Position numbers and translations under genes: made by a program
Assembly: GCA_000091205.1 (NCBI GenBank)
Contig: AP006488.2
DNA: 64,000 bases
Origin: Cyanidioschyzon merolae
Lineage: Eukaryota
Strand: one strand, 5' to 3'
In this document: one piece after another, positions 2,792-64,000 of the stretch
How positions within the stretch are numbered: the stretch's first letter is position 1
Layout: each line of letters opens with the position of its first letter
Notes under the pieces: model-generated
What the model saw: the letters and a program-made list of their open reading frames with translations, nothing else
What the model was told of the DNA's origin: nothing
Database searches by the model: none

Positions 2792-3228
2792 CTGGCGTAC
2801 CACCCAAAAGCTGTACCTAGAAAGAATTCGTTTAAAATGTTTCATTCATAGAGAGGGATTCATGCAAGCTGAGGCAACCGGTTCCGAGGGGTCTAACAAT
2901 GAAGCCTCGTGGGCTGCACCCGGGCACTTGTCTTTTGTCTCGCAAAAGCATAAGTCACGTGTTTGTTCGGCTTTTCGTTTGCTTTGTGAGGTCGCACACG
3001 TGGGGCAAACTGTGATGCTATGGCCGGTAGGCCCTTTCTCAAACATCCGACAAGGGGAGTGTGCACGGTTATGCTGTCCACAAGCAGTTGAAAACGCTTT
3101 CTTGATATTCGCCCATCCTGTGTGTAGGTGGTCACGCCTCTGATTAGAGACGCCGGTAGCGCCGAAAGCAACAGCTCGCAAAACGTTCGCACCTTTTTCG
3201 GGAGCAGTCAGCACCCACATGTCTACTT

Positions 3229-7879: not shown

Positions 7880-9605
7880 GGTTATAATCAAAGCACTGAA
7901 TTTTGGAACAGCTGTGCTGGCTCACCTTTTATGTTTTTGTTTGTCTTTCTCTCAGGTCCCTCATAAAAGCAATCCATCCTTTGGGTGCGAGAACGCTCGC
8001 GGAAACACCAAAGGCCCTCACTGCCAGCTTGCGAGCATAACGGCTTCAGTTCTACGAGTGAGTCACTCTGTGGGTTTACCAAGCGAATGAGCTGCACGTC
8101 GCCTGGCCCTGATCCTGGGGCTCGGGAGCCCAAAACAGAACTTATCCAGCGCTACCCCAACGATTGCCTCTTCTTCTGCGCATTCCACTCCATGCGTACG
8201 CTGACAATGACTCCAAAACATGCCGCAGGGTGTCGAGTTTCCACACCCTTCATACGAATGGTGATGAAGAGTCACCGATGGAATACGCAGAAGCACGCGG
8301 CTATGGGAGGCCTTTGCGCGTCGCATACCTGGTCATCGATTCCGTATGGAAACACGAGCTCGTATTCCGCGGGCAACGGACGTTTGCCGCTCTCGATGAG
8401 ACACGTCCAGCTACGGACGCTCGACATGTGGCTAGGTACGCCACGAAGGGCATATTGCCGTCCTACACGACGACACAAGCGAGCATGAAGCCACCATGTG
8501 CTCCAATGGCGACCACATCCATCAGTTGCCACCGAGCCGCCAAACAGACATGTCCCTTCGACACACCTGATCGTTCGTCGACGCACTTTTGGCTTCTTGG
8601 TCCCACTCTCATCTGCCGCGATCTCAGAAGAGATCGCTGTCCAGTACGCGGTAGGTGCCATCGAGTACACACGCGAGGGCGGCGTTGAGCGGCTCGGCGA
8701 TCCTGCATACTGGTTCAGGTTCAGAGCAGTCATAGGCCCCTTGTCGGTTGTCAACCGCCATACAAGCGCTCGCGGATCTATAGACGACGAGTCGTTCGCA
8801 TCCGTGGACCCGAAAGCCGCAGAACGCCTTCAGAGCTCGCGCAGCTTCGTTCCCGGCGGATGCTCGCGCAGCTTCTCTAGCTTTGGTGCACCTCGTCCAG
8901 CAGCAGCTGTTCAGAGCAGCTGCGCATGCAGAGGAGCCAGCTGTGCGCATTCCTCGGGGCGTGCTCGAGCGAGCCTTTCCGAGGCACAGTACAGCTGATG
9001 CTCTGCACAGAGGATACGATACGGCGTGCTCGTGAACTAGCGGAATTGCAAACAAACACATAAACACACTTACTCACATACACATAAACACAAACACACG
9101 TTCTAGCGTACCTTGACCTGCACGCTACCGCATCAGCGAACGCAAGTGCTACAGTATAGGTCCCTGAAGGAATCGAATGAGCACCACTATCCTAGAGCAG
9201 CTGCAGTTCCGCGCTGAGCGCTCCATGAGGCGCACGCTTTTGATGCCGCATCCTACACTCAGTGGCCGAGAAAAGCGTGACTGATGCAGCGGATTCATGG
9301 CGCGTCGATAGAGCTAAACTGCGGAATAGTGGCGGAGACTGCAGTGGCAGCGGACTCGGAAGCGCTGCCCCAACGCCAGCCAGAGTCGCTCTCGCACCGA
9401 GCCGACAAGCTGGCTTTCGCTAGCGCGTTCCGTGAGTCGGAGAACAAAGTGGCCGATCAACTGCGTCGTTTGGAGGGAGCGTACGGCGTGGAGCACGCTA
9501 CAGCGCACAGGCGCTTCTCTCCATTTCGCTTGACACGAGCGTACGTCGAGTGCAGTGATCGGCTCTGCAGGACGCTCACCGACGCGTTCAGCACACCGTA
9601 CGCAC

Positions 9606-9648
<43 letters not shown>

Positions 9649-10145
9649 ACTCACAACGAAACAGGTAGCGTGGACGAGTGTGAAGCAGTGCCGGACGCTC
9701 TAGACGGTGTACGGCAAGCTTGCCGGACGTCCGACGGCGATGCAACTGGACGCGGCAGGCTCTCTGGGGCGTGACCCCCACCCCCCCGGCAGCGACGTAC
9801 TGTAGGGCTCTCTCTCTCCCCGAAACTCGAACGCCAGGCTCAGCGTCTGGAAATATGTCGGGCGTGTGGAGCGTCCAGCGAGTTTGTGCCGAACGAGTTC
9901 GCCAACGAATCCACGAGGTCTCAGTGTGGGCGTTGCGGTGAAACGCGACAGACTACCGATGCAGCACTATCAGAGGCGAGTTGCCAGGAGAGCGTGTCCA
10001 ACGGGTTTCCACCTGGAGTTAGACACCGAAATGGTACGTTTCAGGAAACCAGCGAGTTTGGTGTGTCGTTTATATACACCGGGATCGGTTCTTCTTCGCG
10101 GATACTGAACGATAATGGTTTTCAGCTATTCGATGCTAATGAGTA
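7880..10145 (+). repeat. R1 dispersed repeat, copy 2
   Basis: About 98-99% identical to copies 1 and 3. (CACGAG)n is expanded to about 7 units at 9608-9649. The poly-C tract is one C longer than in copy 1. Confidence 0.85.
9608..9649. repeat. (CACGAG)7 microsatellite inside R1 copy 2
   Basis: Direct reading. Copy number differs between the three R1 copies. Confidence 0.9.
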
Positions 10146-11944
10146 TGAATGGTTTTGGACTGTCTCTTGTGGCGTGAGGAGTATCGAAAAATTATGAACA
10201 TGTCCTCGGAGGCCCACTCGATAAGTTTGTCTGCGATAGGTGTCCACGCCCACGTGGATTTGGCTCAAGAAACCCCAAATATCTTTAATACTGCACCGGC
10301 GGGTATTTTGCACCTGTGATGCAACTTTGCGAGGCCTGCGTTCGGATATGCCCTCTGTGTGGCGTACAAGATCTTCATGTACGCCGGATACGCTGCAATA
10401 TTGACATGGGAGTTTGAGGCTACGTTGCGCTGCGTTCGTGCAGATGTAGATGCATTTGATCTGGATGCGTTGCTTTCGTTGTTTGCGCTGCCAGCTTGAG
10501 CAGCCTCGTCAGTCATAACAGGCAGTGATCCCTCGACATAAAGTGCTTTGGCGTGATTCTGGAACACTTGGTTGACGCGGAACGATCCGTATGCTTGATG
10601 CCGTTTCTCTTAATCAACCAATATTGTAGTCCGGCATTTTCTTTTGCAAATCTGTGCATTTTTGAATCCAAAGAAACGTTCAATGCTGAGCATGGACCGC
10701 ACAGCTGTAGTCGCGCTGCTTCCCCGTCGCGAGAAAGCTTTCGCTCTGCGGGCGCTCATGGGGCACTTCATGTAAGTATGTTTGGGCGGGGTCGCGGGTG
10801 CCCCGCTTCCTAGGCAGCTGTGCCGATGAAGGCACACTTTTTCCATGTTGGAGTCTATTGGAGACCAATAGGCTTGACGCTTTTGCCCGAGCAGTGCGCT
10901 TCATAGCTGGCACGGCGTCGGCTACTCCATAGCCATGAATTGTGGCATGCCAGCGCTTTATCCCTTTGTTCTTCGATGGGATCTCCACCGTCTACGAGTG
11001 AACGTGCGCCAGCAGGAGCCTTTCCGGAGGGAGCAGTCGTTACATGCGCGCAACATCGGACCCAAGCGTTTGGCAGTTCCAATTAGGTGCTGTAAGATAA
11101 GGAATACAATCCATCTCGTTGCTCTCTTTTACTCTAAATCGACCAGACGTTTGTCAGCTGCACCACTTTCATACATGAGTCAGACGGCAGCTGGATTAGT
11201 TGATGTGTCACATGCGATGCCTCCGCCGTCCTGTGAGCACATAAACATCTTCATTGCTTCTGCTTTCGAGTCCAAGCAGGTCCTAGCCTCGCTCAGCAGA
11301 TGCAGGATTAAGGTTTTAGGAATTAACTTCCAAGCTGTTGGAGAATCTGTCGATGGCAATTGAAACTCAAAGAAGTTTGTGGGGTATCCCTCTCTTTCAA
11401 CGGCACGTCAGCATGAGAAATCTTCAAACAGTGAATGCAATGCAGGCGAGAGTGTTCATTACCAGGTTACGCCCGTCTTCGCGAGAGGACTCTCTTTTCT
11501 GGAGAGGCGTTATTGAAACGCATCCTATGCGAGCAGCTCCTCGTTACACTGGGTCGTTCTCATCACAGGCACATAAAATTTTAGATGAGCTCATCCATTC
11601 ATTACGAATCCGTGGAGTACACGCTGAGCACCGTGCGCTCCAGCTGCGGAGAATCACTCGGAATTCAAGTGCAGTGCCTCCCAATTTGCACGATCTGCAC
11701 TCCAAGTCCAACGACTTGCATCGCTTGAATCTGGTTCCCTGTCCAAAGGACCCTGTCTTGCTGGCAGAAGCTGGGTGAATATTACGGACATTGGCGTTTG
11801 GAGCCCTGCCAACTCCAGCTGGTGGAACAGCAGTTTATGTTCTGCAATCCCCGCTTTTCCTTATACCTCCAAGATCCATGGTAAACGTGATCAGTAAAAC
11901 GAACGAAATCCCGCGACCATGGAGGGTAAACTGAAACCTACTGA

Positions 11945-13450
11945 CAGACGCCTCTCAGCCTTTTTCGACGCGCCGCCTGCTATCGGTTTCAGGTTATGCA
12001 GACGAGCCTCGACCCTCAGAGTCTTTCCCAAGAAGCTGGATCGTTTCAGATCCTCGGATCTTATCGTCAACACCGCACATCTTCTGATACTGATGGCGGT
12101 GTTGAAGTCTCGATTCAGAAACTCCTTGCGTGCATTACCGTTGGTTGAACACACCGATGCAAGAATTGCTAGAACTCATGCCCTCTGCGATATCATAGTC
12201 TTGTCATCATCGCGTCGCGCACACAATTTTTGTCGACTGTCTCCCTTGTTCTTCGTCTTCTTCGTTACGTGCCCTTCTTTGTTCGATTGTCGGCGGGATG
12301 ACGATTTTTCCGTTTGTTTTCGGCAGCTGGCGATGACGGCCCGCCAGGATCTTGGACTTCCATGTCCTTAACGTGCCCTTGGATATTTTATTTTTCCGAA
12401 TGTACTCGCTCCTGTATGCCCTTAGGTGAGGATCTTCCTGGATGGAATCGATTTTGCGGAAGAAGGATGATACGTGCGTCGGTGTCACCGCCCAGAACGC
12501 TACAGCGATTTGCCCTGTGGAGCGATTATTACATTCCATTACAAAAAAACAGTCAGACGATATGGTAGAACAACAAAAAGTTCTATGCAATGAAAAGCGG
12601 ATCTAGCCCAACAAAATGGGCAAACGCTTGGGCGTAACGAGAATGGTGAAATATCACGTTGTCCAGCAGAAGGACGTCGCCAGGCGTCAGCCAAAATTCT
12701 TCAATGATTCAACGCAGGGTGTGGTATTGTGTAAGCGATCTCTATGAGCGAATTTGAGGCTTCAAGATCAAACCATTCCAACTACCAAAGATGATGGTGT
12801 CGTCGTTCTCTTCCAGTTCGATTGTGTAAACAACGGGTGCCCCGTCCGCGAAAAAGACATGTACGCTCCGAGCGTCTCATCCGAAGCAAGTCCGATCGAC
12901 TGGAAAGAACCTGCGGATGTCGGTGTGCTTCATATCGTCCGCTGAGTTCCAGGAATTCTGCAGCTGAGATTTCAGTGGAAAATGGCCGCGCGTGAAATTC
13001 GGCTCTTTACGACTGTATCCCTGTGTTATCAGGACTACGTGAATCAGCTTGTGGGACAGAGAAACGCCTGTGGCGGCTATTACGGCTGCTTTTGCTTTTG
13101 GTAAGATGACCAACGGGTCGTTGTCTACCATTAACCGCAAGCAGTCTTTAAAAGTATCGGTTTTTGTTGGCACGTGGCACAATTGCTTTCTTTCATTGCT
13201 CCTTAAGTATTAGAGTGCTGTTGTATGACTGATCTGTAGGAGGAATACAGTCCTCCTTGCACTATGCAATAGAGAATATATCCGATAGTCAATTCGTCTA
13301 CGATCTGTACATGACTTTGCGTAGTGATTTCGACCGCTTACTAGAAACTGCGAAAATCCAGGCGGAAACACACAGAGGGACAGGAACCCAATGAAGTTGA
13401 AACTCTTTAATGCAACGGCGCACTTGCGACCGGCAATCTGCCGACAATGC
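11945..13450 (-). mobile_element. Family-1 Fanzor/TnpB-associated element, internally deleted non-autonomous copy D (minus orientation)
   Basis: Minus-strand ORFs 12207-12590 (N-terminal-like, 'KNKISKG...IEQRRARNEEDEEQ') and 11891-12154 ('KEFLNRDFNTAISIRRCAVL...LKPIAGGASKKAERRL') match the ends of the long copy at 20389-22704. The 3' terminus 'GGCTGAGAGGCGTCTG' is the complement of 11945-11960. The 5' region shares the conserved hairpin 13238-13257 with copies A and B. The 5' boundary is approximate, +/-150 bp. Confidence 0.55.
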
Positions 13451-14169: not shown

Positions 14170-16423
14170 GGTTATACTCAAAGCACTGAATTTTGGAACA
14201 GCTGTGCTGGCTCACCTTTTATGTTTTTGTTTGTCTTTCTCTCAGGTCCCTCATAAAAGCAATCCATCCTTTGGGTGCGAGAACGCTCGCGGAAACACCA
14301 AAGGCCCTCACTGCCAGCTTGCGAGCATAAGGGCTTCAGTTCTACGAGTGAGTCACTCTGTGGGTTCACCAAGCGAATGAGCTACACGTCGCCTGGCCCT
14401 GATCCTGGGGCTCGGGAGCCCAAAACAGAACTTATCCAGCGCTACCCCAACGATTGCCTCTTCTTCTGCGCATTCCACTCCATGCGTACGCTGACAATGA
14501 CTCCAAAACATGCGGCAGGGTGTCGAGTTTCCACACCCTTCATACGAATGGTGATGAAGAGTCACCGATGGAATACGCAGAAGCACGCGGCTATGGGAGG
14601 CCTTTGCGCGTCGCATACCTGGTCATCGATTCCGTATGGAAACACGAGCTCGTATTCCGCGGGCAACGGACGTTTGCCGCTCTCGATGAGACACGTCCAG
14701 CTACGGACGCTCGACATGTGGCTAGGTACGCCACGAAGGGCATATTGCCGTCCTACACGACGACACAAGCGAGCATGAAGCCACCATGTGCTCCAGTGGC
14801 GACCACATCCCGCAGTTGCCACCGAGCCGCCAAACAGACATGTCCCTTCGACACACCTGATCGTTCGTCGACGCACTTTTGGCTTCTTGGTCCCACTCTC
14901 ATCTGCCGCGATCTCAGAAGAGATCGCTGTCCAGTACGCCGTAGGTGCCATCGAGTACACACGCGAGGGCGGCGTTGAGCGGCTCGGCGATCCTGCATAC
15001 TGGTTCAGGTTCAGAGCAGTCAAAGGCCCCTTGTCGGTTGTCAACCGCCATACAAGCGCTCGCGGATCTATAGACGACGAGTCGTTCGCATCCGTGGACC
15101 CGAAAGCCGCAGAACGCCTTCAGAGCTCGCGCAGCTTCGTTCCCGGCGGATGCTCGCGCAGCTTCTCTAGCTTTGGTGCACCTCGTCCAGCAGCAGCTGT
15201 TCAGAGCAGCTGCGCATGCAGAGGAGCCAGCTGTGCGCATTCCTCGGGGCGTGCTCGAGCGAGCCTTTCCGAGGCACAGTACAGCTGATGCTCTGCACAG
15301 AGGATGCGATACGGCGTGCTCGTGAACTAGCGGAATTGCAAACAAACACATAAACACGCTTACTCACATACACATAAACACAAACACACATTCTAGCGTA
15401 CCTTGACCTGCACGCTACCGCATCAGCGAACGCAAGTGCTACAGTATAGGTCCCTGAAGGAATCGAATGAGCACCACTATCCTCGAGCAGCTGCAGTTCC
15501 GCGCTGAGCGCTCCATGAGGCGCACGCTTTTGATGCCGCATCCTACACTCAGTGGCCGAGAAAAGCGTGACTGATGCAGCGGATTCATGGCGCGTCGATA
15601 GAGCTAAACTGCGGAATAGTGGCGGAGACTGCACTGGCAGCGGACTCGGAAGCGCTGCCCCAACGCCAGCCAGAGTCGCCCTCGCACCGAGCCGACAAGC
15701 TGGCTTTCGCTAGCGCGTTCCGTGAGTCGGAGAACAAAGTGGCCGATCAACTGCGTCGTTTGGAGGGAGCGTACGGCGTGGAGCACGCTACAGCGCACAG
15801 GCGCTTCTCTCCATTTCGCTTGACACGAGCGTACGTCGAGTGCAGTGATCGGCTCTGCAGGACGCTCACCGACGCGTTCAGCACACCGTACGCACAGCGC
15901 GAGCACGAGCACGAGCACGAGCACGAACTCACAACGAAACAGGTAGCGTGGACGAGTGTGAAGCAGTGCCGGACGCTCTAGACGGTGTACGGCAAGCTTG
16001 CCGGACGTCCGACGGCGATGCAACTGGACGCGGCAGGCTCTCTGGGGCGTGACCCCCACCCCCCCGGCAGCGACGTACTGTAGGGCTCTCACTCTCCCCG
16101 AAACTCGAACGCCAGGCTCAGCGTCTGGAAATATGTCGGGCGTGTGGAGCGTCCAGCGAGTTTGTGCCGAACGAGTTCGCCAACGAATCCACGAGGTCTC
16201 AGTGTGGGCGTTGCGGTGAAACGCGACAGACTACCGATGCAGCACTATCAGAGGCGAGTTGCCAGGAGAGCGAGTCCAACGGGTTTCCGCCTGGAGTTAG
16301 ACACCGAAATGGTACGTTTCAGGAAACCAGCGAGTTTGGTGTGTCGTTTATATACACCGGGATCGGTTCTTCTTCGCGGATACTGAACGATAATGGTTTT
16401 CAGCTATTCGATGCTAATGAGTA
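14170..16423 (+). repeat. R1 dispersed repeat, copy 3
   Basis: Near-identical to copies 1 and 2. It ends 18 bp before the stop codon of the convergent ApaG gene. Confidence 0.85.
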
Positions 16424-19399: not shown

Positions 19400-22300
19400 T
19401 GCCAACGTGGACAAAGATCGATTTGGACGTGCACGCTATCCAGCGGTCTTTGGAGCTTCGCGCACTGTTTCGGGGGTTTTTCTCAATGACAAAACGTTTA
19501 CATTTACCATGGATTTCAGATTGCGGGATGCATCATGGCTTTTAGGTTAGCATCCATCATGAAGCACCTACCACCAAGCTCCATTACCCATACTTCCTCT
19601 CGGATATTCTGGTCGTTTCGCACGCTCCATCGTGTGCCGAGTGCCTGCCGTGAGCACCCGCCATCGCGCTTAGACCGCTGAAGCAGATGCTGCGCGGAGA
19701 CAGAACGGTTTTGCCATACTACTGTGGGCGTCGGCTCGCGGAATCCTGTATCTGATACGCAATCTCGGCGAATTATCATTCTGGGAGCCTGCAAGCTGCG
19801 CAGTCAGAGGCGCTGTTTGCGACAGCGCAAAGCGATGTAGAAGGGTCCACTAGGACCCGGTCGACGCCCCAATGCGGCATACCTTCTACGAGTCCCAGAT
19901 TAAACTGCATTTCGGACGAGTCGCTCAGACCTTGCAGCGGCATATGTCACTTAAGAAACACGTAGCACCAGCCTACCAGACTAGTCCGGCTCGCGGTGCC
20001 TTCTGCCTAGAAGGTAAACTTTAGACAATACGGGAACATTTGTCCCCTTTGAACGTTAATCGTAGAGGAGGAAAAATATATAAAGAGTCGCAGGTGAATC
20101 CAGAGTCTCTGCTTTTTATTCTAAATAGCGCACTCGATACGCGCACATAGGACATCTGACAGTCACCGGATACGACGTCCATGTCGCCGTTGAAGGGAAA
20201 CGCGATCGTGATCAACAGCGTGTTGTACTGCCGGTAAAGTTGGACTTGCGTTAGAGTCATAGCAATGTATAGTTCTTCAATTCAATTTTGTTTCAGCCTT
20301 CAAGTAAGTATATTCAAGTGATTTTTCGCGAGTTCTGGTAGAAGCGTTCCATGAACGTTCTTTTCCAAAAAAATAAAAAAGGAAAGTTATGGAAGAGCAC
20401 GTCGACAATTGTGGAAGCCTGGTGTCGCCGGCTGGCAGAAAAAAACGAAAAACAGAGCCTATCCCGCAGGAACAGGAGAGGACGAAGAAGCGAAGGCAGG
20501 AGGCCCTACGTGGAAGGCTCCAAAAAAGACAACTGTACGACGAGATGGTGGTGAAATCCTGTCTTCGTAAACGTATCAGGGATCCATACAAGGAAAGGTT
20601 GCGAGACGCTATCAGAAACCTTGTCGATTCGTACTCCAAGAAGGATGTAAAGACATCGTCAGGACTAGCGCATTTGGCGAAGGAGATGTACGAAGATGTG
20701 GCGCATATGGAAACAGTCGAGGGTCTGGGCTAGTTCTTCAACATGACCATGATTCGTCGTCTGATGCTTGGTACAGGGGAATCTTCGACGAAAAAAGAGC
20801 TATTGCAAGCCCTCCGCGAAAACTTCGCGGAATTCCACTTCGAGGGTACTCGATACAGGGGTGACCGGGATATTTACACATGCGGGGCGATGAAGTTCAT
20901 CATGAACGTAAAGAACCATTTGACGATGAACCTCGAAAGTTTCATGATGAGCGCCGTGTTTGCGCTATACCTGGGCATCTCTCGCAAAGGAAAATGAGCG
21001 ATTATCAATGGCATCACGAACGATCGCCAGCATGAAAATGAGGTATAATTTGTCGACAAGAGGGCGTCAAAAGAGAGCACGGATGAAGCTTCTGTGATCC
21101 GTGCGGCTATTCAAGAGCACCGTGCAGTCTTAGGGTTGGTGAATCTAGCAGAAAAGATATCAGCGTTGAAAAAAGATAAGGAAAGATACTATCGCCTCGT
21201 CCTGCGCTATTTTGTGTTTCCGGACCGTGAACTCGAACGCAAGGCAGAGATGAAGCTGAGTGAGGAGACAAAAAAAGAGTGGTAGAGACGGAAGGCTTTT
21301 CTAATGGGGAAGCGCTTCAACGTCGTTCCAATGTGCAACATCAAGTCACATTTCGTGACTATCGACTAAAGAATCCTTCACGGCATCATGAAGGAGATGT
21401 GTCCGGAGTTCGATGTTAGCAGGGAGGAGTTCTCCGGTGAAAACCGGGAGACGTACTGGAAGAATATCTTCAGTTTCAAACGTCTGAGAGTGAGCAAGCA
21501 AAAGTTGTTTACTGGGATGATTGAAACCGATGGAGTAGCCTTGTGTATACACTATCGGCGGTTGAAGAGAGATCGTCCAGTTCCCCCCTCGGCGAACCAT
21601 GAAGATGAGAAAGAGGCGGATCTTGCGACGCAGGAGGTAGAGGATAACGACCTCGTCGTTGGCGTGACGAAGGATGAAGATGAGAAGAAGGAGGATCCTG
21701 CGACGCAGGAGATGCAGGATAACGACCTTGTCGTTGGCGCGACGAAGCATGAAGAAAAGAAGTAGGCGTGCCTTGAGACGAAGAAATTGCAGGATAACGA
21801 CTTTGTCGTTGGCGCGGACCCCGGAAACACAAATATCATCACCATCGCAGCACCGAAGCGTGCAGAAGAATGTACTGACGGCAACTTGCGTCCGAAAGAC
21901 ATGCGTCTTTTGAGGTTCTCGAGAGCGAGATACTATCAAGAATCCGGTATAATGAATGCAAGGAAGAAAATCGTTACGTAGAATGCAGGAATGAAGGATC
22001 ACCTGGAAGCTTTGAGCTAGGTGACAAGTCGAGGAGCGGACTTTGAAGCTTTTCGGAAATTCATGGAAGTTCGCATTGCGCATTGGGATGCGCTGTGGGA
22101 GGAGTATACAAAGCCCCGGCGGGCTCGTTTGCGAATGAATTTGTATTGTGGGAAGCAGCGGGCGTTCGCGAACTTTTTCAGTCAGTTGAGTGCCCTCAAA
22201 GAGGATGAAACTCAGCGGCTAGTAGTGGCGTACGGAGCAGGGCGCTAGATGACCCAAAAAGGGACTACGCCAGCTCCAACGACAAGAACATTCAAAGAGT

Positions 22301-22704
22301 GTGCACGGCGTTTTGTTACAATACCGATAGATGAGTTCCGAACGTCCTATACACACCATGAACTGGGATGTACACTTCAGCGAGTGGAGATGGAAAAGTG
22401 TCAGCGGAGCCCTGAGGAAATAGCAAAGTACGGACCACTGACGGAAGAGCAAATGGAAAGGAGGGTGAAAGTTCGTGGACTCCTTGCACTAGTAAGTACA
22501 ACGTCTAATGGCAAGAAACGAACGGAGTTTGTGAACCGTGACTTTAATGCCGCTATCAATATATGCAGATGTGCGGTGCTGGAGAGTAGACCTCCAAGGT
22601 CGACAAGAGTGAACTTTGTTGGACAACCCGTCAAAGTCGAACTATATGAGAATAAATTGGAACCAATAATAGGTGGCCGGTCCAAAAAGGCTGGGAGGCG
22701 TCTG
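19400..22704 (+). mobile_element. Family-1 near-full-length Fanzor/TnpB-bearing element (copy E): about 0.9-kb 5' 'F' region plus a 2.3-kb nuclease pseudogene
   Basis: The 5' part (about 19400-20300) is homologous to 54320-55100 and 46500-46760. The body is one reading frame from 20389 encoding NLS-like 'RKKRKTEP...KKRRQE', RuvC-I '[15 protein letters not shown]', 'IDEFRTS...C', RuvC-III 'EFVNRDFNAAINI' and 'LEPIIGGRSKKAGRRL'. The terminus is at 'GGCTGGGAGGCGTCTG' (22689-22704), where all five family-1 copies diverge into unrelated flank. The 5' boundary is uncertain. Confidence 0.55.
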
Positions 22705-22842
22705 CACATCAGCTGGAGAGTTCTTCTCCAGGGCCCCGGTCGCCACTACTGTACACTGCTGCCGGTAGCAACAAGTAGCAAAAGTTCAACCGACGAGTCC
22801 ACGGATGGATACTCGGCCAAAAGGTTCAGGTCACCGTTTTAG
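20389..22842 (+). pseudogene. Fanzor/TnpB-like RuvC nuclease (OrfB_Zn_ribbon-type) pseudogene
   Basis: One continuous frame; all seven ORF-track pieces start at coordinates congruent to 1 mod 3. It is interrupted by 10 in-frame stops (TAG at 20731, 21283, 21763, 21979, 22018, 22246; TGA at 20995; TAA at 21046, 21367) with no frameshift. The open frame continues 138 nt past the element terminus to TAG at 22840. Confidence 0.7.
21615..21830 (+). repeat. Internal about 72-bp x2.5 tandem duplication inside the nuclease ORF
   Basis: The repeated peptide 'KEDPATQE(V/M)(E/Q)DNDLVVG(V/A)TK(D/H)E(D/E)(E)KK' sits immediately upstream of RuvC-I '[16 protein letters not shown]' and duplicates its lead-in. 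Confidence 0.8.
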
Positions 22843-24389: not shown

Positions 24390-25776
24390 TGTTTCTGGTC
24401 CACTCCCTCTGAGTCCAGTCGAATGCGTTCTCGCGGTGAAGAGCAAGCGACCGAAATCACTCTAGGATGTACGTTATAGATCGGAGACGAATTGCTTACG
24501 GGATATGTATGCTTTACTGAGTAGTGCAAGGGGGACAGCACCCCCCGCCCTGCGGCTCATTCGTATCGCAGTTCTCAGATGGTCGGGGGTCATTGAAAGA
24601 AACAAGTAGATGCTCTCAGCGCCAAGAGCTGATACTCTCCAAAGAGCTCTCGGTCTATGGTAGAAAACGACCCATTGATTAGCTTACGGAACGCAGAAGC
24701 GACGATAGTAGTCGCTGTGGGCGTCTCTGTTTCTCAACAGCTTGTTCAATGGTCCTGAAAACACCGGGATACAGTAGCAAAAAACTTTCCACTTCAGTCA
24801 CGACAATATTCCACGGCATTCGCTACTACAATCGAATTCCTGTAACGTCGCGATCTGTATGAAGCACAGGACGTTGATTTGTATTTTCAGCCGATGGGAC
24901 TTCCGTCGGACGAGAAGGTCGTGGGAAATATGGCCATTCGCGGAGCAGGGAGCTCGTTGTATTTAACATCGAATCTGGGGAGAAAGATGACATCATTATC
25001 TGTTCTGATTGCAATGGATTCATTCGACGGCGTCATTTCCACTCGCAGAGCAGGCGCATACAACAGCACCAATCACTTCGTCGAACCACTGAAGACTTTT
25101 TCCCTGAAGTCTGGCGAAGACCCTCTGCTGCACAACGTTGTAATTCACCATTCCGGTTGCGTTCGAGCTTTTGCTGATTCAATCGGGCTAGAGCTGCGTT
25201 TCATTCCATTGTACGCAACGTTGTTTTACCCCATCAAAGGACTGTTTTCTATTGTGAATCGTAATGATCGCTCCACTAGGCGAATCGCTGAAGCGTTCGA
25301 CACACGGTGACACAACGGGGCACATTTCGTCTTTCTTCAGCACGTCCTTCTCCCTCCGGGGAGGTCTCCACCCATGGGTATACACAAGTAGGTTCATTTA
25401 AAAAAATAAAAAATCCAAGGGAGAGTCATGGGCATGGAAGTCGAGGATCCTTGAGGAGCTTTGTTGCCGGCTTCGAAAAAACAAGGAACAAAAATCCTCT
25501 TCTCGCCAACCATCGAGAGAAGAAGAACAAGTGAAGAAGAGGAAGAAGAGGGAGACAGGCAAGAAAATGTGTTTGCTCGACCGTACGACAACGAGATTTC
25601 AGTGGCAGAGAGGGTATGCGTTCTAGGAATCCTCGCATTGATGAGTTCCACCAGCTGCAGTAACCGAGGAATTGACGAGATACGATTTTGTGGAGCAGCC
25701 TCTCAGGCACGAGGTGTGCCTTGATAACCTGGAACCGATAGCGGGCTGCTAGTCAAAGAGGGCTGGGAGGCGTCCG
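24390..25776 (+). mobile_element. Family-1 internally deleted non-autonomous copy A
   Basis: It shares about 700 bp of 5' 'L' region with copies B, C and D: hairpin 24530-24546 and the conserved block 25254-25330 'GTGAATCGTAATGATCGCTCCACT.GGCGAATCGCTGAAGCGTTC...'. It has an N-terminal-like segment ('NKNPLLANHREKKNK...EEEEEEG') fused to the 3' tail '...LEPIAGC*SKRAGRRP' and terminates at 'GGCTGGGAGGCGTC' (25761-25774). The 5' boundary is approximate. Confidence 0.55.
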
Positions 25777-27052
25777 TGACTGGGATTATAAATGCGCTCT
25801 ATTGTTGCGAAACGTTTTCGTGTCACTGACGATACAAGAAATTCGCAATTTCCAGTGCTTCGATGACTGCGTTGTGTATTTGGCAAGCTGCTGCTTGTCA
25901 GTTCCACGCGTTTACTTCTGAAGCGATCGTTGCGTCAGCTGCGAATCCCGTTGAACACATTTTTTGTGCTGCTGAGAACATGTCGCTCCTAAAAAGGAAA
26001 CTTGTTTTCGTTCTTGAGGAACTCCGAACCCAGCGGAGCCAAAAGTTTCCTACCGCCATTCATGTCGAATAAGCCTAAAAAACAGACGACTTCGGTACGG
26101 GTGCCAAGGAGCGGATACCCTTACCGATTTGATCAGACTCGACTACCTGACGCATACGTCGAAGAATGCAGTCAGCCTGCACAGTTCAACTCGGGGACGG
26201 CGAAGGGTTCCGAGGCGTCAGCGCCTCTCCATCGGTTAGCACACAACAGGGGACCTCTCTATCAATTCCAGCATTTATGAGCGATCTCAGAATCAGCGCA
26301 TCAATTCCATTTCGAGACTGAGCGAGAGCGGCAGTAAACCGTTCTTGAGTCGCCCCATTTCGCCAAAATCGCATGCTTGCGCATGCGCGCGAAGCCCTGA
26401 AAAGACAGTACCGAAACTCACGCTCGTCTGTTCCATTGGGCCGTATGAACACGTTATTGAGAAACCGCTAGATAGCAGGATTTTCTGCACCATAAAGCAA
26501 AACAAGTTTTTTCATTAAATAGCCAGTACGCTCACTCGTTCTACGGGTCACTGCGTAGCGCCTGCCCCCGGCGATGCACGGGTGCCGCTGCGCCCGATGC
26601 GCGTGCAGCATCGGGCGCAGCAGGCACGCATTGAGGATAGAAATGTCCATTGTATAGTTATGTCCCTAATTTTTATACCCGCGCCTCGTTACCGCGCGAC
26701 GCCGGTATTTCGAAATCGGAGGCATCGACTCGGTACGCTGAGAGCTTGACGTGTGCTGAGTCGGGGCGACGACGTTTCCGAGAGTATTCACTTTTCCGCG
26801 TTGTAATCAGCTTGCTTCCTATTGCTTACGTGGCAGTTGGGTGTCAAGTTGGAGCCCTTTGCCGTCGGGCCTGGAGAAGAGGTTCGTTTTCCGAACAGGA
26901 ATTCTGTCTTAAAGAATATGCTTCTATAAAACCGGCACAGCGCAAGTAGCGACTCTTTCTGTGGGTGAACTCTGGTACACGCACACGATTCCAAGTTCGC
27001 CTTGCGAGGTTGATGTTCTGAGAGATCCAACGGTGAACTCTTCTGAGCAAGT

Positions 27053-29769: not shown

Positions 29770-31253
29770 GTTGCTCAGGCAGCAGAGCGCCCGGGACTGT
29801 GAACCTAATCTTGTGTTTCAACTTGATTTTGTTTCATCCGCACTGTGGTGTATAGAAGGAGACAGAAACCACGATGCAATGTATCGCATATATTGTAGAC
29901 GAATGCCTGTGGGATATACTCTGTACTGAACAGTACAGGGAGGACTGCATTCCTCCTTCAGGTCAGTCATGCCGTCGTACGCAGATGGTTGCGGAACACT
30001 GCAAGAACAACGTATATGCGGTCTGCGCTAAAAACCCCATATTTTAGAAGACTTCTTGCCGTCAATGAAAGGAACCGAACCGTTGATCACCGTACGGAAC
30101 GCAGAAGCGACGAAAGTAGTCGCCACGGGCATCTCTTTTTCTCAACAGCTTGTTCGAGTCGTCCGGAAAACACTGGGATACGGTCGCGAAAAATGTTCTA
30201 GTCGAATCACGAACACTTTCTACCAAAATAGCGACGACAGCGTTCATAGAACGTCACAATCCGTGTAAAGCCGAGGGAGGTCGGTTTGTATCTTCAGTCG
30301 ATGAGACTTTATTCTGACGAAACCGTCGAAGCGTACAGGGGTATTCGAGGTGAAGGATCCCGTTGTACGTACGCTTGAACTCGAATAGAACGAGGACATT
30401 ATCTGTTCTAGCTTTAGTGGATATGTTTGGTGGCCTCAGTTTCGCTCGTAGAGAAGGCGCATAGAATAGCACCAATTTTGCCGAATCATTGAAGGCTTTT
30501 CCCCAGACGTCTGGCGACTTCCTTTAGCTGGACAACATGGCATTTCCCCCTTTCGGTTACGTTCAAGCTTTTGCACATCGTATCGGGCTAGAGCTGCTTT
30601 TCATTACTTAGTAATTTCCGTTGTTTTACCGCATCGGAGGAGTCTTTTCCATCGTGAATCGTAATGATCGCTCCACTGGGCGAATCGCTGAACCGTTCAG
30701 CACACAGTGAAACAACGGGGCACATGTCGCCTCTCTTCCGCAAGTCCATCTCACTCCAGGAAGGTCCTGACCCAGGAACATAAACAAGTGCGTTCGTTTG
30801 AAGCAACAGAGATCCAAGGGAAAGGTATGGGCGTACAAGTTGAGGATCCTGGTGTACCGTCATTGCCAGGTTCTCCAAAACAACGAAGAAAATCATCTTC
30901 TCGCCGATAATCGAGCGATGGAGAGCAACGCACGACGAAGAGGAGGATGACAATGAGTAAGGCGAGAAGAGGTGTTTACCCCACAGGACGACAACGAGAC
31001 TGTAGTGGCGTATAGGGCACGAGTTCGAGGAATCCCGGCAAAGATGAGTTTCACCATCGCCGGTAAATGCAGGGAATACGTAAATCGAGAATTCAACGCT
31101 GCTATAAGCACCAGACGATGTGCGATGCTGAAGAATAGACCTGAGGCGCTGACATGATCTAATTTTGTAGGGCAGCCTCTCAGGGTCGAAGTGCACAAGG
31201 AGCGGCTGACGCCGATAGCAGGATACCGGTCGAAACAAACTGGGAGGCGTCTG
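29770..31253 (+). mobile_element. Family-1 internally deleted non-autonomous copy B
   Basis: 5' L region with the perfect palindrome 'CTGTACTGAACAGTACAG' (29921-29938) and hairpin GGAGGA-ctgcat-TCCTCC (29939-29956). Conserved block 30654-30730. ORF 30972-31157 '...QDDNETVVAYRARVRGI...KCREYVNREFNAAISTRRCAML'. Terminus 'TGGGAGGCGTCTG' at 31241-31253. The 5' boundary is at or before 29770. Confidence 0.55.
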
Positions 31254-32813
31254 CGGATGGATAGTGATTCGCCCTGTGATCGCGAGGCTTTTCCGCACCA
31301 CTTATCACACTTGAATCATGATCGAAGAGTGGTAAATCGCATTGTTTCCCGAAAGACGAGTCATCAGTACCTGCGAAACATCTTCTCTACCATGTGAATG
31401 ACCATCTCCTGCGGTATTTTGAAAATGGAGTGCAATAAGTGATTTTTTTCGTTCGTATAGCTCAAAGAATTCCGCTCTTAGACGTGATTACTTGCGGCTG
31501 GCAAGCAATATGCACCGTCGCATTGCATGGTGCGAATCGTGACCGGGCAACGCAGTCATCGAAAACAAGAATGTGATGAGGTCCGACTAACTTTGCAGAT
31601 GCATCTCGAGAGACGCGTGCTTCCAAACGCCCCGAAATTAGGCTCAGCGTGCGCTTTCGAACAAGCTTCGCATGCAGACATGCTCAGCAATCGCACCCCT
31701 GGTCCATCTGATACGCGCTTCGGATTGGCGTACGGTGCGCTTTCAGAAAGGCCGTACTCGAAGCGAACATGCCGAGCAACTTTGCCAAGTAGCGATATAC
31801 CGCGGATCCGGAGCGCAGCCAGTCGCACGACGAAGCTGCCCACTATCTACAGAGTATACTGGGCATACGGACTTGGCAACATCCATTCATCGGGCGATCT
31901 GTGGCCTGCATGGGGTTTTCACTTGGTCCGCTCTGAAGCTGCTCGTAAACAACAACATGCCGTCCAAAACGCGGTTCCTATGTTGAACGCTGCATGGTGA
32001 TTCTATACCTCGCGATCCATTTCCATCAAAACCGGTAAACCTCGTCAAAACTGGATCTTCGCCCGACATATTGATGAGACTGAGACAACCACCTCATTAA
32101 CATATGGTCTCTGATGAAGTCGTCGTCCGTACGGGTGTCAAAACAACGTGTCCAGTAACGAGTCTCAACGATGCTCGGCTAAACGTGTACATTTCGAAAA
32201 CCTGCTGCGTGCCTCGATCGCCACACAGCGACATCCTCTGAGCAAACAGTTTTGTCTATATCTATACCATAATTTCCTTTTCTTTCATTCCACGGCGCGA
32301 TCGCTCCAAGCCGCAGAGGCTGCGCTCGCGGCGGTCCGCAGTGACGCGCCCTGCGATCTGTGCGTCGCCCTCTGTAGCATGCCTTGTGCCGACGGTGCAG
32401 AGCGTATCGAAGCTTGCGTCAAAACGACAACTCCGTCAGCATAACACGTTGTCGAAGGACGTATTTCGGAAACCTGGAGGGAGACTGTGTTCCGTGACCA
32501 AGCATCCTCGTGCGAGGTCGGCCGATTCCACTTTTAAGACGTTCAGCGGCGGCGTACGAGTGGAGAGAGATCACGCAACGCGGCAAGGTGTGGTGCGGCT
32601 GTTGCCAGGTTTCGTGCCTGAAGAGAGGCCGCGCTTGCCGTTAACTTCTGACCTTTGGCGACTGAAAAGCCATTCTAAATCACCAGAACGGGACTATTGG
32701 GGTTTGCAATCTTCCAGCAGAGCCCTCTGGGCACACATTTGACGTCCAGAGAACGGTGAAGCTCGGACAACAGCACCCGCCGGCAGCATTATTGCTCGCG
32801 TACTGTGCGCTCC

Positions 32814-40720: not shown

Positions 40721-42159
40721 CCAGTGTAAGCACAATATGGGAGAGACCCTTTTCTGCTGGCGTACACGCTAACGTTTGGGTCGCGTCCCACGCTGATCGA
40801 CACCAGCCTTTGTTCGCGTTTTCTACCACCGCCTCCTTTTGCTCGCTTTTAGCTCCAGCGTGAACTACGACGGTCTCAACTGTCCCGCCAGCTCCACTTT
40901 CAGGAGTCGAAGCATGTCGATGGCAGCGTTCAGGTCGCGGTTGCGCTGCCTCCGGCTGGTGTCAAGGCTCCGCCAGCACCGGCAAAAAAGGTCGCGATCG
41001 ACGCCTCGCTTGCCACCTTCGTGTTCTTTGAATGGAGCCACGAAGCGGCCCGGCACAGCGGTGACACTTGGCACTGGTCAGAGGCTCGAGCGTATTCACC
41101 ACACCCTGTGAGCCGCGGACGACCCTGTAGCGCGTCAGGGCTCGCTTCATCGCTCGGTAAACGCTCTACCTGGAACAGAAGCGTCCTATCAATACGATTC
41201 TCGGTCTCAACGACTGGTGCACTGTCCTAGAAGCACGGGATTCTCGCCGACGATACCCTGGGCGGGGGCTTTGCCCGCTGCACACACACACACACACACA
41301 TACGTACATCCATCCATCCATACATACATACATACGCACACACAGCATCGTGTGCAGTTCCATTCCATTGAGGGCTGTGGAGCGCGAGTTCTGCATAAGA
41401 TGGAACAATTGCCTTGACGAACTTGCTGGCTCTAGATCGAGTAGAGATACTGCGATCTGTCGAGGCTTCCTGCGACCAAGGCGGTGACACTTGTGGTACC
41501 ACAGGCGATCGCCGCGGTAATCGAGTCCCAAGTCGAGCATTCTTTTCCAAACAAACAGAAGAGACAGTGCTTCTCGGGGCTTGGTAACGAAGCGGTAGCA
41601 TACTGCTGCCGAATGCCGCCTCGATCCTGGTCACAGAGACCCGAGGATTCGTCTCCCGCACGGAATGGATTCCATGACGCCAGGAGTCCAGTGAACTCTC
41701 TGTGTGTGAGCTTGCGAACAGGTCGTCCGAGCACGACATACACTTCTCTCCATCTCCATCGGCCTGCCGGGCGCATATTGCTGCACCCAAGCGTTGCCTC
41801 AATATAGAACGATCGAAAACTTGAGGTATGCACGGCGTGAGCGTGCTGCTCACTCGCAAACGAGAGGACTGGCGGCTTGTACGCGTGCAACGGATGCTCA
41901 TTGCAATGTTTCCGTATGAACCGCTGTACGAGTGTATCGCGAAGCATCCTGACTCTGGTAGCGTGACGAATTCGGGCGGGACAGCGTCGAGGAAGCCGCA
42001 CCAAAACGTCGACCGATGATCCTGAAACGACGCATGAATCCATCATACGTTGTTGGTGCACCTCGAATGTCGAGCGTGTTCGTGTACCAAGAAAACGCTG
42101 GAGACAATATCCAGCGGCATCGACAGAACAAACAGTTCAGCGTTCCAGTTTGAGATCCG
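40721..42159 (-). mobile_element. Family-2 element (R2), copy X, carrying a degenerate TnpB/Fanzor-like gene on the minus strand
   Basis: Minus-strand frames give 'NTLEPLTSAKCHRCAGP' (TSxxCxxCG zinc-ribbon motif) and, after a frameshift, 'RRQRNRDLNAAIDMLRLL' (RuvC-III). It also contains (CA)n and (CATC/CATA)n at 41279-41345. It is about 97% identical to 49752-51202. Boundaries are where the two copies diverge. Confidence 0.7.
41279..41345. repeat. (CA)n plus (CATC/CATA)n compound microsatellite inside R2
   Basis: Direct reading. The homologous tract in copy Y (about 50310-50378) differs in length. Confidence 0.9.
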
Positions 42160-46499: not shown

Positions 46500-46760
46500 G
46501 TTTTATTCAGTACGCGGTGAGTTATCCATCAAACCCCCTACTCCCAAGTTATATGACCTATGCTTCTTCTCGGATATTCAGGTCGTTTCGCACGTCCTAT
46601 CGTGTGTGCCTAGTGCCTGCCGAAAGCGACAGCAATAGCGCCTATAGCGCCGGTGCGGTCGCTGCACCGAGACAGAATGGCGTTGCCGTACCACAAAGGG
46701 CGTCGGCTCGAGGCTGCGACCGATAATACCGGCAGCAGCGCCCGCTGCAATCGATGCATC
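46500..46760 (+). repeat. Partial copy (F3) of the 5' 'F' region of the family-1 long element
   Basis: 'CTTCTTCTCGGATATTCAGGTCGTTTCGCACGTCCTATCGTGTGTGCCTAGTGCCTGCC...GAGACAGAATGGCGTTGCCGTACCACAAAGGGCGTCGGCTCGAGG' aligns with 19586-19740 and 54480-54600. Confidence 0.4.
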
Positions 46761-49751: not shown

Positions 49752-51202
49752 CCAGTGTAAGCACAAAACGGGAGAGACCCTTTTCGGCTGGTGTACACGC
49801 TAACGTTTGGGTCGCGTCCCACGCTGATCGACACCAGCCTTTGTTCGCGTTTTCTACCACCGCCTCCTTTTGCTCGCTCTTAGCTCCAGCGTGAACTACG
49901 ACGGTCTCAACTGTCCCGCCAGCTCCACTTTCAGGAGTCGAAGCATGTCGATGGCAGCGTTCAGGTCGCGGTTGCGCTGCCTCCGGCTGGTGTCAAGGCT
50001 CCGCCAGCACCGGCAAAAAAGGTCGCGATCGACGCCTCGCTTGCCACCTTCGTGTTCTTTGAATGGAGCCACGAAGCGGCCCGGCACAGCGGTGACACTT
50101 GGCACTGGTCAGAGGCTCGAGCGTATTCACCACACCCTGTGAGCCGCGGACGACCCTGTAGCGCGTCAGGGCTCGCTTCATCGCTCGGTAAACGCTCTGC
50201 CTGGAACAGAAGCGTCCTATCAATACGATTCTCGGTGTCAACGACTGGTGCACTATCCTAGAAGCACGGGATTCTCGCCGACGATACCCTGGGCGGGGGC
50301 TTTGCCCGCTGCACACACACACACACACACTCATACGTACATCCATCCATCCATACATACATACATACGCACACACAGCATCGCGTGCAGTTCCATTCCA
50401 TTGAGGGCTGTGGAGCGCGAGTTCTGCATAAGATGGAACAATTGCCTTGACGAACTTGCTGGCTCTAGATCGAGTAGAGATACTGCGATCTGTCGAGGCT
50501 TCCTGCGACCAAGGCGGTGACACTTGTTGTACCACAGGCGATCGCCGCGGTAATCGAGTCCCAAGTCGAGCATTCTCTTCCAAACAAACAGAAGAGACAG
50601 TGCTTCTCGGGGCTTGGTAACGAAGCGGTAGCATACTGCTGCCGAATGCCGCCTCGATCCTGGTCACAGAGACCCGAGGATTCGTCTCCCGCACGGAATG
50701 GATTCCATGACGCCAGGAGTCCAGTGAACTCTCTGTGTGTGAGCTTGCGAACAGGTCGTCCGAGCACGACATACACCTCTCTCCATCTCCATCGGCCTGC
50801 CGGGCGCATATTGCTGCACCCCAAGCGTTGCCTCAATATAGAACGATCGAAAACTTGAGGTATGCACGGTGTGAGCGTGCTGCTCACTCGCAAACGAGAG
50901 GACTGGCGGCTTGTACGCGTGCAACGGATGCTCATTGCAATGTTTCCGTATGAACCGCTGTACGAGTGTATCGCGAAGCATCCTGACTCTGGTAGCGTGA
51001 CGAATTCGGGCGGGACAGCGTCGAGGAAGCCGCACCAAAACGTCGACCGATGATCCTAAAACGACGCATGAATCCATCATACGTTGTTGGTGCACCTCGA
51101 ATGTCGAGCGTGTTCGTGTACCAAGAAAACGCTGGAGACAATATCCAGCGGCATCGACAGAACAAACAGTTCAGCGTTCCAGTTTGAGATCCGGAACGGA
51201 TG
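49752..51202 (-). mobile_element. Family-2 element (R2), copy Y
   Basis: About 97% identical to copy X. Here the minus-strand ORF 49993-50772 is continuous through the microsatellite into '...YRVVRGSQGVVNTLEPLTSAKCHRCAGPLRG'. It lies between the PLP-enzyme stop (49608) and the UTP7 stop (51336). Confidence 0.7.
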
Positions 51203-62439: not shown

Positions 62440-63891
62440 CATGATCAAATCGCTTGTAGACTATCAACGTACTTTGGGTTCACCCCTGATACGGTACATA
62501 GCAGGAGATCGAATTCGCGATGCAATGTAATCTATAGATTGGAGACGGATTGCCTGTAGAATAGATTCATTTCTGAACAGTACATAGCGGACTGTGTTCC
62601 TCCTTCAGTTCAGTTATACGACAGTACTCAGATGGTTGAGGAAGACTGATAAATACAAGAAGATACGCGCTGTGCCAAAAACTGATATTCTCAAAAGTGC
62701 TTTCGGTCCGTGGCAGAAAACGACCTGTTGATTACCGTACAGGAAGCAAAACCGACGATCGTAACGACCACAAGCGTCTCTGTTTCTCAACAGATTGTAA
62801 GTACCGTCCTGAAAACAATGGGATCTAGTTGCAGATAAAGAGTCCTTGGTCATACACGGCAAACTTCCAGCGAAATCGCAACGAATACAGCGTTCCTGGA
62901 AAGTCATTGTAAGTATGAAACACGGGCACGTCGCTGTGTTTGTTCAGTCAATGAAACTTGCTTCGGAAGAAACGATCGGACCATGCACGGGTATCTTCGA
63001 GGTGCATGGAGCTCTTTTTATGTACGATCAAACTCGAAGCGAACGATAACACCATCTCTTCTATCTGGAGTGTATTCATTTGGCGACCTCAGTTTCGATC
63101 GCAGAGGAGGCTTGTAGATCAGCATCCGCTTTGTCGAATCATTGAAGACTTTCCTCTGACGTCTTGCGCCGTCCTGCTGTTGGACAACATGACATTTCAC
63201 CATTCGGGTTGCAAGCGTGATTCTGTCTATTCTCACTAGGTAAAGCTGGTTTTCGTTCCCCAGTACTTTTCGTTGGTCGACCCCATCGAGGGAGTCTGCT
63301 CTATCGTGAAACGTAGTCATCGCTCCAATGGGCGATTCGCTGAAGCGTTCAGCGCACGGTGACCCACCGGGGCACATGTCGTCTCTCTTCCACAAGTCCT
63401 TGTCTCTCGGGGAAGACGCTCACCCAGGGTCGTCAAGAAATGCGTTTATCTTGAAAAAATCAAAGGGAAAGTTATGGACATGCAACTCGAAGATGCTTGA
63501 GAGCGCCGTCACCACCCCGTTCCACAAAAAACGAAAAAGATCCGTTTCTCGCCAAGTACCGAGTGACGAAGAAGACGACGATGAGGGATAGACGAGAAAA
63601 ACAGGATGTTTGCCCTGCGGAACGATAATGAAACTACAGTGGTTCAGAGGGAGCGAATCCGAGGAATCCTCGCAACGCTGAATCCCATCAGATGCAAGAA
63701 ACGCATGGAGTTCGTGAACCGAGACCTTAACGCTGCTATGAATAGCAGACAATGTGCGATACTGAAGAAAATACCCGAGGAAAGAACACAATTGAACTTT
63801 CTGGGGCAGCCTCTTAGACTCTAGAAACGCACAAGGAGAAGCTGAAACTCATAGGAGGCCACCGGTCGAAGAACGCCCGAGAAGCGTCTCG
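62440..63891 (+). mobile_element. Family-1 internally deleted non-autonomous copy C
   Basis: L region with 'CGATGCAATGTA...TTCCTCCTTCAGTTCAGT...CAGATGGTTG', conserved block 63306-63380, N-terminal-like 'KGKLWTCNSKML...KKRKRSVSRQVPSDEEDDDEG', then '...NDNETTVVQRERIRGI...RMEFVNRDLNAAMNSRQCAIL'. Terminus 'GAGAAGCGTCTCG' at about 63891. It abuts element Z on its 5' side. Confidence 0.55.
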
Positions 63892-64000
63892 ACGTTGGTG
63901 TGGATTCACGCGACAGCCGCGGAACTGCGCTTGAGAATTTGTGGCAGTCTATCGTGAAACGCTGACCCAGAATGAACTGATGACGATTAATCAAAACGAG

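Follow-up and report, generated by a model that had tools for sequence, protein, structure and literature searches.

A modestly slower-decaying patch in the dead transposase gene of a transposase-Fanzor1 element of Cyanidioschyzon merolae

Why should one stretch of 77 nucleotides look nearly the same in three copies of a repeat whose flanking sequence shows only about 70% pairwise identity? The question is posed by copies A, B and C of an element in a 64,000-nt stretch of DNA (the window) from chromosome 6 of C. merolae 10D, in which the neighbouring 427-aa TPT transporter is identical to BAM79507.1. An earlier note on this DNA had called the stretch an 'ultra-conserved core' and proposed a promoter, an RNA motif or a transposase-binding site. 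The sequence that it quoted is indeed present at all three sites (Table 1), and its placement inside a repeated mobile element was correct, the element copies being dead transposons with a decayed transposase gene. The core itself is an ordinary relic of that gene and not an ultra-conserved element: the substitution rate dips across the whole family over about 25246-25310, to about 0.65-0.7 of background, an effect that is real but modest.

Table 1. Coordinates in the window of the core copies, the slower-decaying patch and the elements discussed in the text.
Feature	Position	Strand	Remarks
Core copy A	25254..25330	+	transposase codons VNRNDRSTRRIAEAFDTR, premature TGA (25308-25310), 20 nt beyond
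Core copy B	30654..30730	+	69/77 identical to A
Core copy C	63306..63382	+	65/77 identical to A
Core copy D	12467..12539 (approximate)	-	4-nt deletion; background-level divergence; overlooked by the earlier note
Reproducibly slower-decaying patch	25246..25310	+	divergence from consensus about 12% here and 16-21% outside, consistently across the three copy sets
Longest open transposase (DDE_3) remnant, copy A	24879..25310	+	143 codons; Pfam DDE_3 E = 2.3e-4
Fanzor1 remnant, copy A	25428..25790	+	N terminus (ATG 25428/25434, 'MEVEDP...') fused by internal deletion to C-terminal region
Element copy A	24428..25829 (right end approximate)	+	decayed IS630/mariner-like transposase, then internally deleted Fanzor1
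Element copy B	29847..31305 (right end approximate)	+	same family as copy A
Element copy C	62492..63940 (right end approximate)	+	same family as copy A
Element copy D	11890..13356 (right end approximate)	-	found by sensitive self-comparison of the window
Full-length CMe-1A Fanzor1 element	19486..22769	+	context; without core

The sequence identity of the core is secure. The surrounding 'L region' of the earlier note is a decayed transposase gene of the IS630/Tc1-mariner type, and the core is a dead stretch of its coding sequence, reading through the codons ...FSIVKRNDRSTGRIAEAFSTR to a premature stop. It codes for ...VKRNDRSTGRIAEAFSTR, followed by the TGA and a further 20 nt; its central 32-mer is ATCGCTCCACTGGGCGAATCGCTGAAGCGTTC, and in copy A the Fanzor ATG (25428) follows 98-174 nt downstream. 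Both short translations quoted earlier exist, in ORFs at 24879-25310 (+) and 25188-25397 (-).

The assignment to a transposase rests mainly on the family consensus, a majority consensus of ten copies. Copy A alone scores 21.5 bits against Pfam DDE_3 (E = 2.3e-4); the consensus reaches 67.5 bits (cutoff 28.6; E = 1.5e-18), and its 98.7 bits against NCBIfam IS630 (E = 4e-28) fall just below the curated cutoff of 100. The likeness to IS630 (NF033545; DDE_3, PF13358) covers profile positions 72-275 of 299 and includes the catalytic triad D...D(35)E (DD35E), readable in the consensus as VDET ... LLLDN ...(35)... NRIEG. The consensus is also 25% identical to the mariner transposase of PUl-1 (E = 2e-9). 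In contrast to IS630, the C. merolae gene belongs to a eukaryote, has decayed and stops about 25-30 codons short, and in individual copies the catalytic residues are substituted, H replacing the second D in copy A. While a word-seeded protein search found decayed copies only, a full profile search reached intact relatives of about 300 aa, which carry the protein motif FSIVKR-x7-I-xx-AF at the position of the core. These proteins run on for another 25-30 residues past the position of the family's TGA, which marks that stop as premature.

Behind the transposase follows a Fanzor1 gene. It has been internally deleted, since the downstream ORF of the consensus is an in-frame fusion of an N terminus (MDVQVKDPG..., compared with MEKEVEDPG in CMe-1) with a C terminus (EFVNRDFNAAINI...). 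The RuvC-III motif of the Fanzor1 C terminus (RDxNAAxNI) is recognisable in the consensus (EFVNRDFNAAINI), in copy C (EFVNRDLNAAMN) and in copy B (EYVNREFNAAIS); copies B, C and D retain VNR(D/E)xNAA, and copy A has lost the motif through a 65-nt deletion. The full RuvC-I/II and zinc finger of an intact nuclease are missing from these copies, removed by an internal deletion of about positions 960-2840 of the CMe-1A consensus, and Pfam Cas12f1-like_TNB matches the remnant with an E of only 0.14. There are two Fanzor deletion subfamilies, the second having a different internal deletion.

CMe-1A was described as a 3169-bp Fanzor1 element without terminal repeats and was left unclassified (Bao & Jurka 2013, PMC3627910). 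Its consensus, which we took from the supplement of that paper, is matched by copies A-D in blastn only at about 869-961, around the Fanzor ATG, and at 2840-3084, the Fanzor C terminus. CMe-1A (TE-N2_CMe) and copies A-D belong to the same Fanzor1 lineage: homology, at 68-75%, extends over some 40 bp before the ATG, the first codons and the final 250 bp. The difference lies in the 5' part: CMe-1A has its own region of about 900 bp (TE-N2-like) with neither transposase nor core, whereas copies A-D have the transposase gene in its place. Local alignment finds no core in CMe-1A, and the core motifs do not occur in the window outside copies of the composite element. A short piece at 22511-22704 represents a further element, of which it is the 3' end, as judged from self-comparison of the window and the CMe-1A consensus. 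CMe-1A probably corresponds to the 3.2-kb repeat with a WSV486-like ORF of which C. merolae has 253 copies (Nozaki et al. 2007, PMC1955436).

Copies A-D represent an old, non-autonomous composite transposon of C. merolae. Their boundaries are precise only to about 10-20 nt, and over the whole element of about 1.4 kb the pairs in the window are 68-72% identical, slightly lower than the 'about 75%' given for the surrounding sequence in the earlier note. Beyond these four copies, the analysis draws on 14 DNA copies from metagenomes, 18 in all, and on nine further protein fragments. A metagenome scan seeded only with sequence from the left half of the core gave 32 loci, six of which were unrelated chance hits; the 26 true copies collapse to ten paralogous loci (A-D and six others), each present in two to four strain variants that are 98.6-99.8% identical. 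Because such a seed favours copies whose core is conserved, eight further DNA copies were retrieved by protein search with the consensus transposase. None of these eight contains the exact seed, all share 5-residue query words outside the core, and their neighbours are C. merolae genes on other chromosomes. The nine extra fragments stem from a profile search and were chosen by a family-specific motif outside the core. In total, the family has at least 27 members.

How did these copies come to differ? Among the 18 DNA copies, every pairwise identity falls within 62-74%, a flat matrix that amounts to a star phylogeny. Codon positions are equally diverged throughout, with no periodicity on either strand; the dN/dS-like ratio in the transposase ORF, calculated against the family's own mutation spectrum, is 0.97; and the counts of singleton and shared variants match simulated independent mutation on a star tree. 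The copies therefore go back to one burst from an already defective master copy and have decayed neutrally since, each now standing about 18-20% from the consensus.

Against this background, the contrast seen in A, B and C is sharp. Of the 77 columns, 61 are identical in all three (69 between A and B, 65 in each of the pairs with C), and a 75-nt sliding window reaches its maximum at the core, with 0.79 invariant columns compared with about 0.5 elsewhere. The word 'ultra-conserved' does not hold for the family, which has only about 30% fewer substitutions in the interval, or to copy D, which is at background with 18 substitutions in 73 nt, where 18.1 are expected. A, B and C have 6 substitutions each where about 14.5 would be expected, whereas D, F, H, J and L037 show background divergence. 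A winner's curse explains part of the contrast, since A, B and C are among the best-conserved of the 18 copies in this interval, and a selection effect thus adds to the dip: the interval was picked where these three are best preserved.

What remains after this effect is smaller and reproducible. The ratio of observed to expected substitutions over 25254-25330 is 0.60 for A-D and 0.66 for the 12 copies outside the in-core-seed retrieval, and in a column permutation of these 12 the core is the most conserved window of 45-77 nt (p < 0.001). The eight independent copies have 75 substitutions in the interval compared with 109 expected (ratio 0.69, z = -3.6), and amino-acid changes in the nine extra fragments stand at 0.72 in the core compared with 0.99 in the segment upstream, both replication sets having been found through ORFs or profile scores to which the core contributes, with a small bias toward conserved cores possible. 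The earlier note had named a uniform substitution rate over more aligned copies as the outcome that would speak against its core; the rate is not uniform, and the dip persists while shrinking from about 0.4 to about 0.7 of background. Conservation of the 20 nt after the TGA is not reproducible between copy sets. As a caution, three paralogues picked by eye can turn a 30% effect into apparent ultra-conservation.

Ancient repeat families with selectively conserved cores exist in vertebrates, among them MER121 and LF-SINE. The C. merolae family resembles them in that a short internal segment is more conserved than the rest of a dispersed repeat. In MER121 and LF-SINE, however, the conservation is strong and holds between orthologous copies across species, whereas here it amounts to about 30% and is seen between paralogous copies only.

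What could slow the decay of a patch in a dead gene? The star phylogeny requires the dip to date from after insertion, which leaves three options: weak selection on a DNA element, an intrinsically lower mutation rate, or short-tract recombination toward the consensus. The earlier note had rightly raised the need to separate coding from nucleotide-level constraint, and its proposed dN/dS-like analysis of each strand gives ratios of 0.89 (sense) and 0.82 (antisense) in the core, with no coding signal. Any constraint would act on the nucleotide sequence and not on a protein, since codon periodicity is absent, synonymous sites in the sense frame of the core are depleted like nonsynonymous ones (0.70 and 0.63 of neutral expectation), and neither ORF is consistently open across copies, all six frames carrying stops in most of them. 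At the nucleotide level, all four mutation classes are reduced alike, to 0.51-0.71 of background, so that a cold spot specific to one class is ruled out; base composition and CpG do not account for the deficit either, as 111 substitutions are observed and 173 expected once they are allowed for. A search of the patch for a sharp motif found none, the conservation being diffuse, and a search for gene conversion in the form of excess shared variants in the patch was negative, the counts fitting independent mutation.

We favour a neutral reading, to which we would assign an even chance. The dip would then reflect DNA-level regional heterogeneity in the decay of dispersed repeats, and might stem from a locally lower mutation rate or from copies correcting one another now and then over short tracts, in an alga with ready homologous recombination. 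Our preference rests on the effect being slight and diffuse and differing between copies, and on negative results for every functional signature that could be tested.

Some observations sit less comfortably with neutral decay. A uniform deficit across mutation classes in three copy sets would also be expected from weak purifying selection. Gene conversion has left no positive trace, and at about 70% identity recombination between copies should by now be rare. Finally, 19 chosen central positions are fully intact in ten of the at least 27 copies, which exceeds what a uniform 12% divergence would give if the family is small, six of the ten having been retrieved by that very pattern.

The main rival to the neutral reading, to be taken seriously though we think it clearly the less probable, is that the patch acts in cis as a DNA element that purifying selection maintains in many dead copies, either a relic of the Fanzor1 upstream control region or a binding site, terminator or insulator adopted by the host, whose genome is very compact. 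The dip recurs in independent copy sets, and the even reduction of synonymous and nonsynonymous sites and of all mutation classes is what selection at the DNA level would give. The location is suggestive as well, between the catalytic core of the transposase and the Fanzor ATG, the consensus holds a perfect palindrome (GCTGAA-GCG-TTCAGC), and transcription of the related repeats that bear Fanzor has been reported (Nozaki et al. 2007, PMC1955436). However, the effect is only about 30% and is spread over some 65-90 nt without a sharp motif, several copies (D among them) are at background, and the 3' arm of the palindrome is variable, with no compensatory changes. Conservation is independent of whether a copy retains the Fanzor ATG, and polymorphism between strains is not significantly lower in the core (5 of 693 sites, compared with 93 of 8234 outside; p = 0.45); the ratio is the same as for the substitutions, but the comparison is without power among variants that are 98.6-99.8% identical. 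The promoter proposed in the earlier note is weakened in particular, because the core is absent from CMe-1A, although the Fanzor start region is common to both, and is unconserved at the DNA level in an intact relative, in which the codons of the patch are 43% identical compared with 59% upstream.

Two candidate motifs were followed up and rejected. A promoter common with CMe-1A reduces to a shared 10-mer, GAAGCGTTCA, with no extended similarity in local alignment. A palindrome resembling a heat-shock element, GAAGCGTTC, has the wrong spacing, 3 nt in place of 2, and is confined to these elements.

But is there a family-wide dip at all? A pure sampling artefact, in which A, B and C were chosen by eye and the added copies carry a retrieval bias, appears less likely than a cis-element. 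Copy D, the one copy free of bias that also played no part in the discovery, shows no conservation; six copies were obtained with an in-core seed and the other sets come from ORFs or profile hits that include it; and rate variation between windows is somewhat over-dispersed (SD of z 1.2-1.6). Against this stand the two replications described above, with query words or selection motif outside the core, and the permutation result for the copies that the in-core seed had not fetched.

We are a little more doubtful still that the patch is a sequence-specific DNA element selected in many dead copies, that is, a binding site, terminator or insulator dispersed by a transposon and adopted by the host in a minimal genome, or that it has been kept uniform through nuclease-triggered homologous repair between copies. 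The core itself matters little: dead coding sequence decays modestly more slowly there, and no functional sign accompanies the dip.

Protein-coding constraint, whether on a C-terminal motif of the transposase or on the antisense ORF 'DMCPVVSPC..ERFSDSPSGAIITIH', is very improbable. Intact relatives do conserve the FSIVKR motif here and the antisense ORF is long in copy B (237 aa), but the patch has no codon periodicity (p = 0.14-0.17), the depletion of synonymous sites, the strand-wise ratios and the stops in all six frames count against it, the premature TGA is already present in the consensus, and the rest of the ORF evolves at an omega of 0.97.

A structured RNA, be it the scaffold of a Fanzor guide (omega) RNA, a snoRNA or the core of a tRNA-like SINE, is more improbable again. 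The element does contain a Fanzor gene, three small hairpins are possible in the consensus, and there is a weak resemblance by eye to C/D and A/B boxes. Folding z-scores are nonetheless about zero (+0.1 sense, +0.3 antisense), RNAalifold finds a consensus of 4 pairs at -1.3 kcal/mol with a covariation term of -0.02, and Rfam gives nothing at the gathering threshold, its only weak hit lying outside the core, so the earlier idea of an RNA motif is not borne out. Guide RNAs of TnpB and Fanzor lie at the 3' end of the nuclease gene, whereas the patch is upstream of it. A tRNA or SINE origin, suggested by a minus strand that looks like an A box or D arm and a plus strand that looks like a B box, was rejected, as ARAGORN reports nothing in the window and no cloverleaf could be drawn by hand. 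A C/D-box snoRNA was likewise discarded: AUGAUC and CUGA are present, but a terminal D box and Rfam support are not.

Equally improbable is that the patch is the transposase-binding site of the earlier note, or that it was once a terminal inverted repeat of the mariner-like part. In favour are two copies of ATCGCT at a distance of 17 nt and a location near the end of the mariner-derived half. However, neither the patch nor the surrounding 200 nt has an inverted or direct counterpart at the element ends above shuffle expectation, or indeed anywhere in the element; the patch lies within the ORF in intact relatives; and, the phylogeny being a star, a binding site required for transposition would have had no protection once the copies had inserted. 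An origin of the core from a terminal or internal repeat was rejected on the same comparison with shuffled sequence.

C. merolae has been described as nearly devoid of class II elements, with only eight that are transposase-related (Nozaki et al. 2007, PMC1955436), and its CMe-1A Fanzor1 repeat as unclassified; a description of the present transposase-Fanzor1 family for this alga was not found in the searchable literature. The gene order recalls the mariner/Tc1 transposons with Fanzor1, among them PUl-1 from Pythium ultimum and PGv-1 (Bao & Jurka 2013, PMC3627910), which likewise combine a DDE transposase of the IS630/mariner type, a short spacer and a Fanzor1 gene on the same strand. They differ from the C. 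merolae family in two respects. No terminal inverted repeats were detected in the latter: comparison of the left end of the consensus with the reverse complement of its right end gave nothing above shuffle expectation, a weak negative given that the ends are old and diverged, and a terminal pair was not found in the intact relative L047 either. Moreover, all C. merolae copies are dead, with a premature stop, frameshifts and a Fanzor gene deleted in two different ways.

An intact pair of the two genes does still exist. In two intact relatives, the transposase is followed after 58-114 bp by an ORF of 629-660 aa on the same strand. One of them, L047, from the public read archives SRR24204716 and SRR26937325, pairs a transposase of 300 aa, across a 114-bp spacer, with a Fanzor1 of 629 aa that is 38% identical to CMe-1 (E = 7e-34) and ends in KFVNRDVNAALNI; its architecture is identical in gene order to that of the mariner-Fanzor elements. 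From these relatives we infer that the ancestral unit was a transposase plus Fanzor1, like the elements of Bao & Jurka. The at least 27 copies show that the same Fanzor1 lineage as in CMe-1A once travelled with a transposase of the IS630/mariner type, and the persistence of an intact pair in L047 makes this context of some interest to transposon specialists.

The nearest intact relative of the dead Cyanidioschyzon merolae transposase-Fanzor family is a gene pair on a contig from public read archives, L047:393-3299 (Logan SRR24204716), which encodes a 300-aa IS630/DDE_3 transposase and, after a 114-bp spacer, a 629-aa Fanzor1. A second contig, L048, also belongs here, as does probably a contig of ENA ERZ1426830. 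The L047 contig showed no terminal inverted repeats. Seen against these relatives, the consensus TGA of the transposase family (25308-25310 in window copy A, and the equivalent positions in the other copies) is premature: the intact proteins extend 25-30 residues beyond it, and read-through past the stop (HTGAHVVFLPQVLL) still yields a peptide similar to their tail (VTPSHVKSFFRHAL). A premature stop in the consensus, followed by a recognizable remnant of the intact tail, shows that the master copy was already defective by the time of its amplification.

The decayed copies, from the window (A-D) and from metagenomes, fall into two deletion subfamilies: F, G, I, J, L038, L042, L044 and L046 versus A, B, C, D, H, K, L037, L039 and L045. 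In one subfamily the Fanzor start codon (ATG) is retained together with about 45 codons of the N-terminus; the other has lost this part but keeps about 35 extra C-terminal codons. Comparison of the two revealed no difference in conservation of the core, the segment at 25254-25330 of copy A. A private 65-nt deletion (window ~25663) removed the Fanzor RuvC-III motif from copy A, while B, C and D still carry it.

Besides these old elements, the window holds further repeats, including a full-length copy of the published Fanzor1 element CMe-1A.

Further repeats and duplications in the window
Feature	Position	Strand	Remarks
CMe-1A Fanzor1 element, full-length	19486-22769	+	82-88% identity to published consensus
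CMe-1A 5' 635-bp module (TE-N2_CMe-like), two copies	54344-54972 and 46537-46713		one complete, one fragment
Tandem array, 86-bp unit	53554-54455		at least 8 copies; inner copies 98-99% identical
Large direct duplications	545-2721 / 7880-10075 / 14170-16353		97-100% identical; spacing 6.3-7.3 kb
Large direct duplications	40721-42085 / 49752-51119		97-100% identical; spacing 9.0 kb

Both sets of direct duplications arose recently, as segmental or tandem duplications of genes, and have no relation to the old elements. The 86-bp array lies immediately 5' of the TE-N2-like element. Within the full-length CMe-1A copy, 75 bp are triplicated (21593-21817), and its 3' end (consensus 3100-3169; window ~22700-22769) carries a GC-rich hairpin (GCCGCCA...TGGCGGC) with a T run behind it; a guide RNA of Fanzor, or an end of Helitron type, would be expected at this place. 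The 5' terminus of CMe-1A (AACGTTTACATTGACCATGGATCC) resembles ACGTTTACCATGGATC, found directly beyond the right end of copy D (window ~11890-11930, minus strand), a similarity that suggests an adjacent or nested insertion at this flank.
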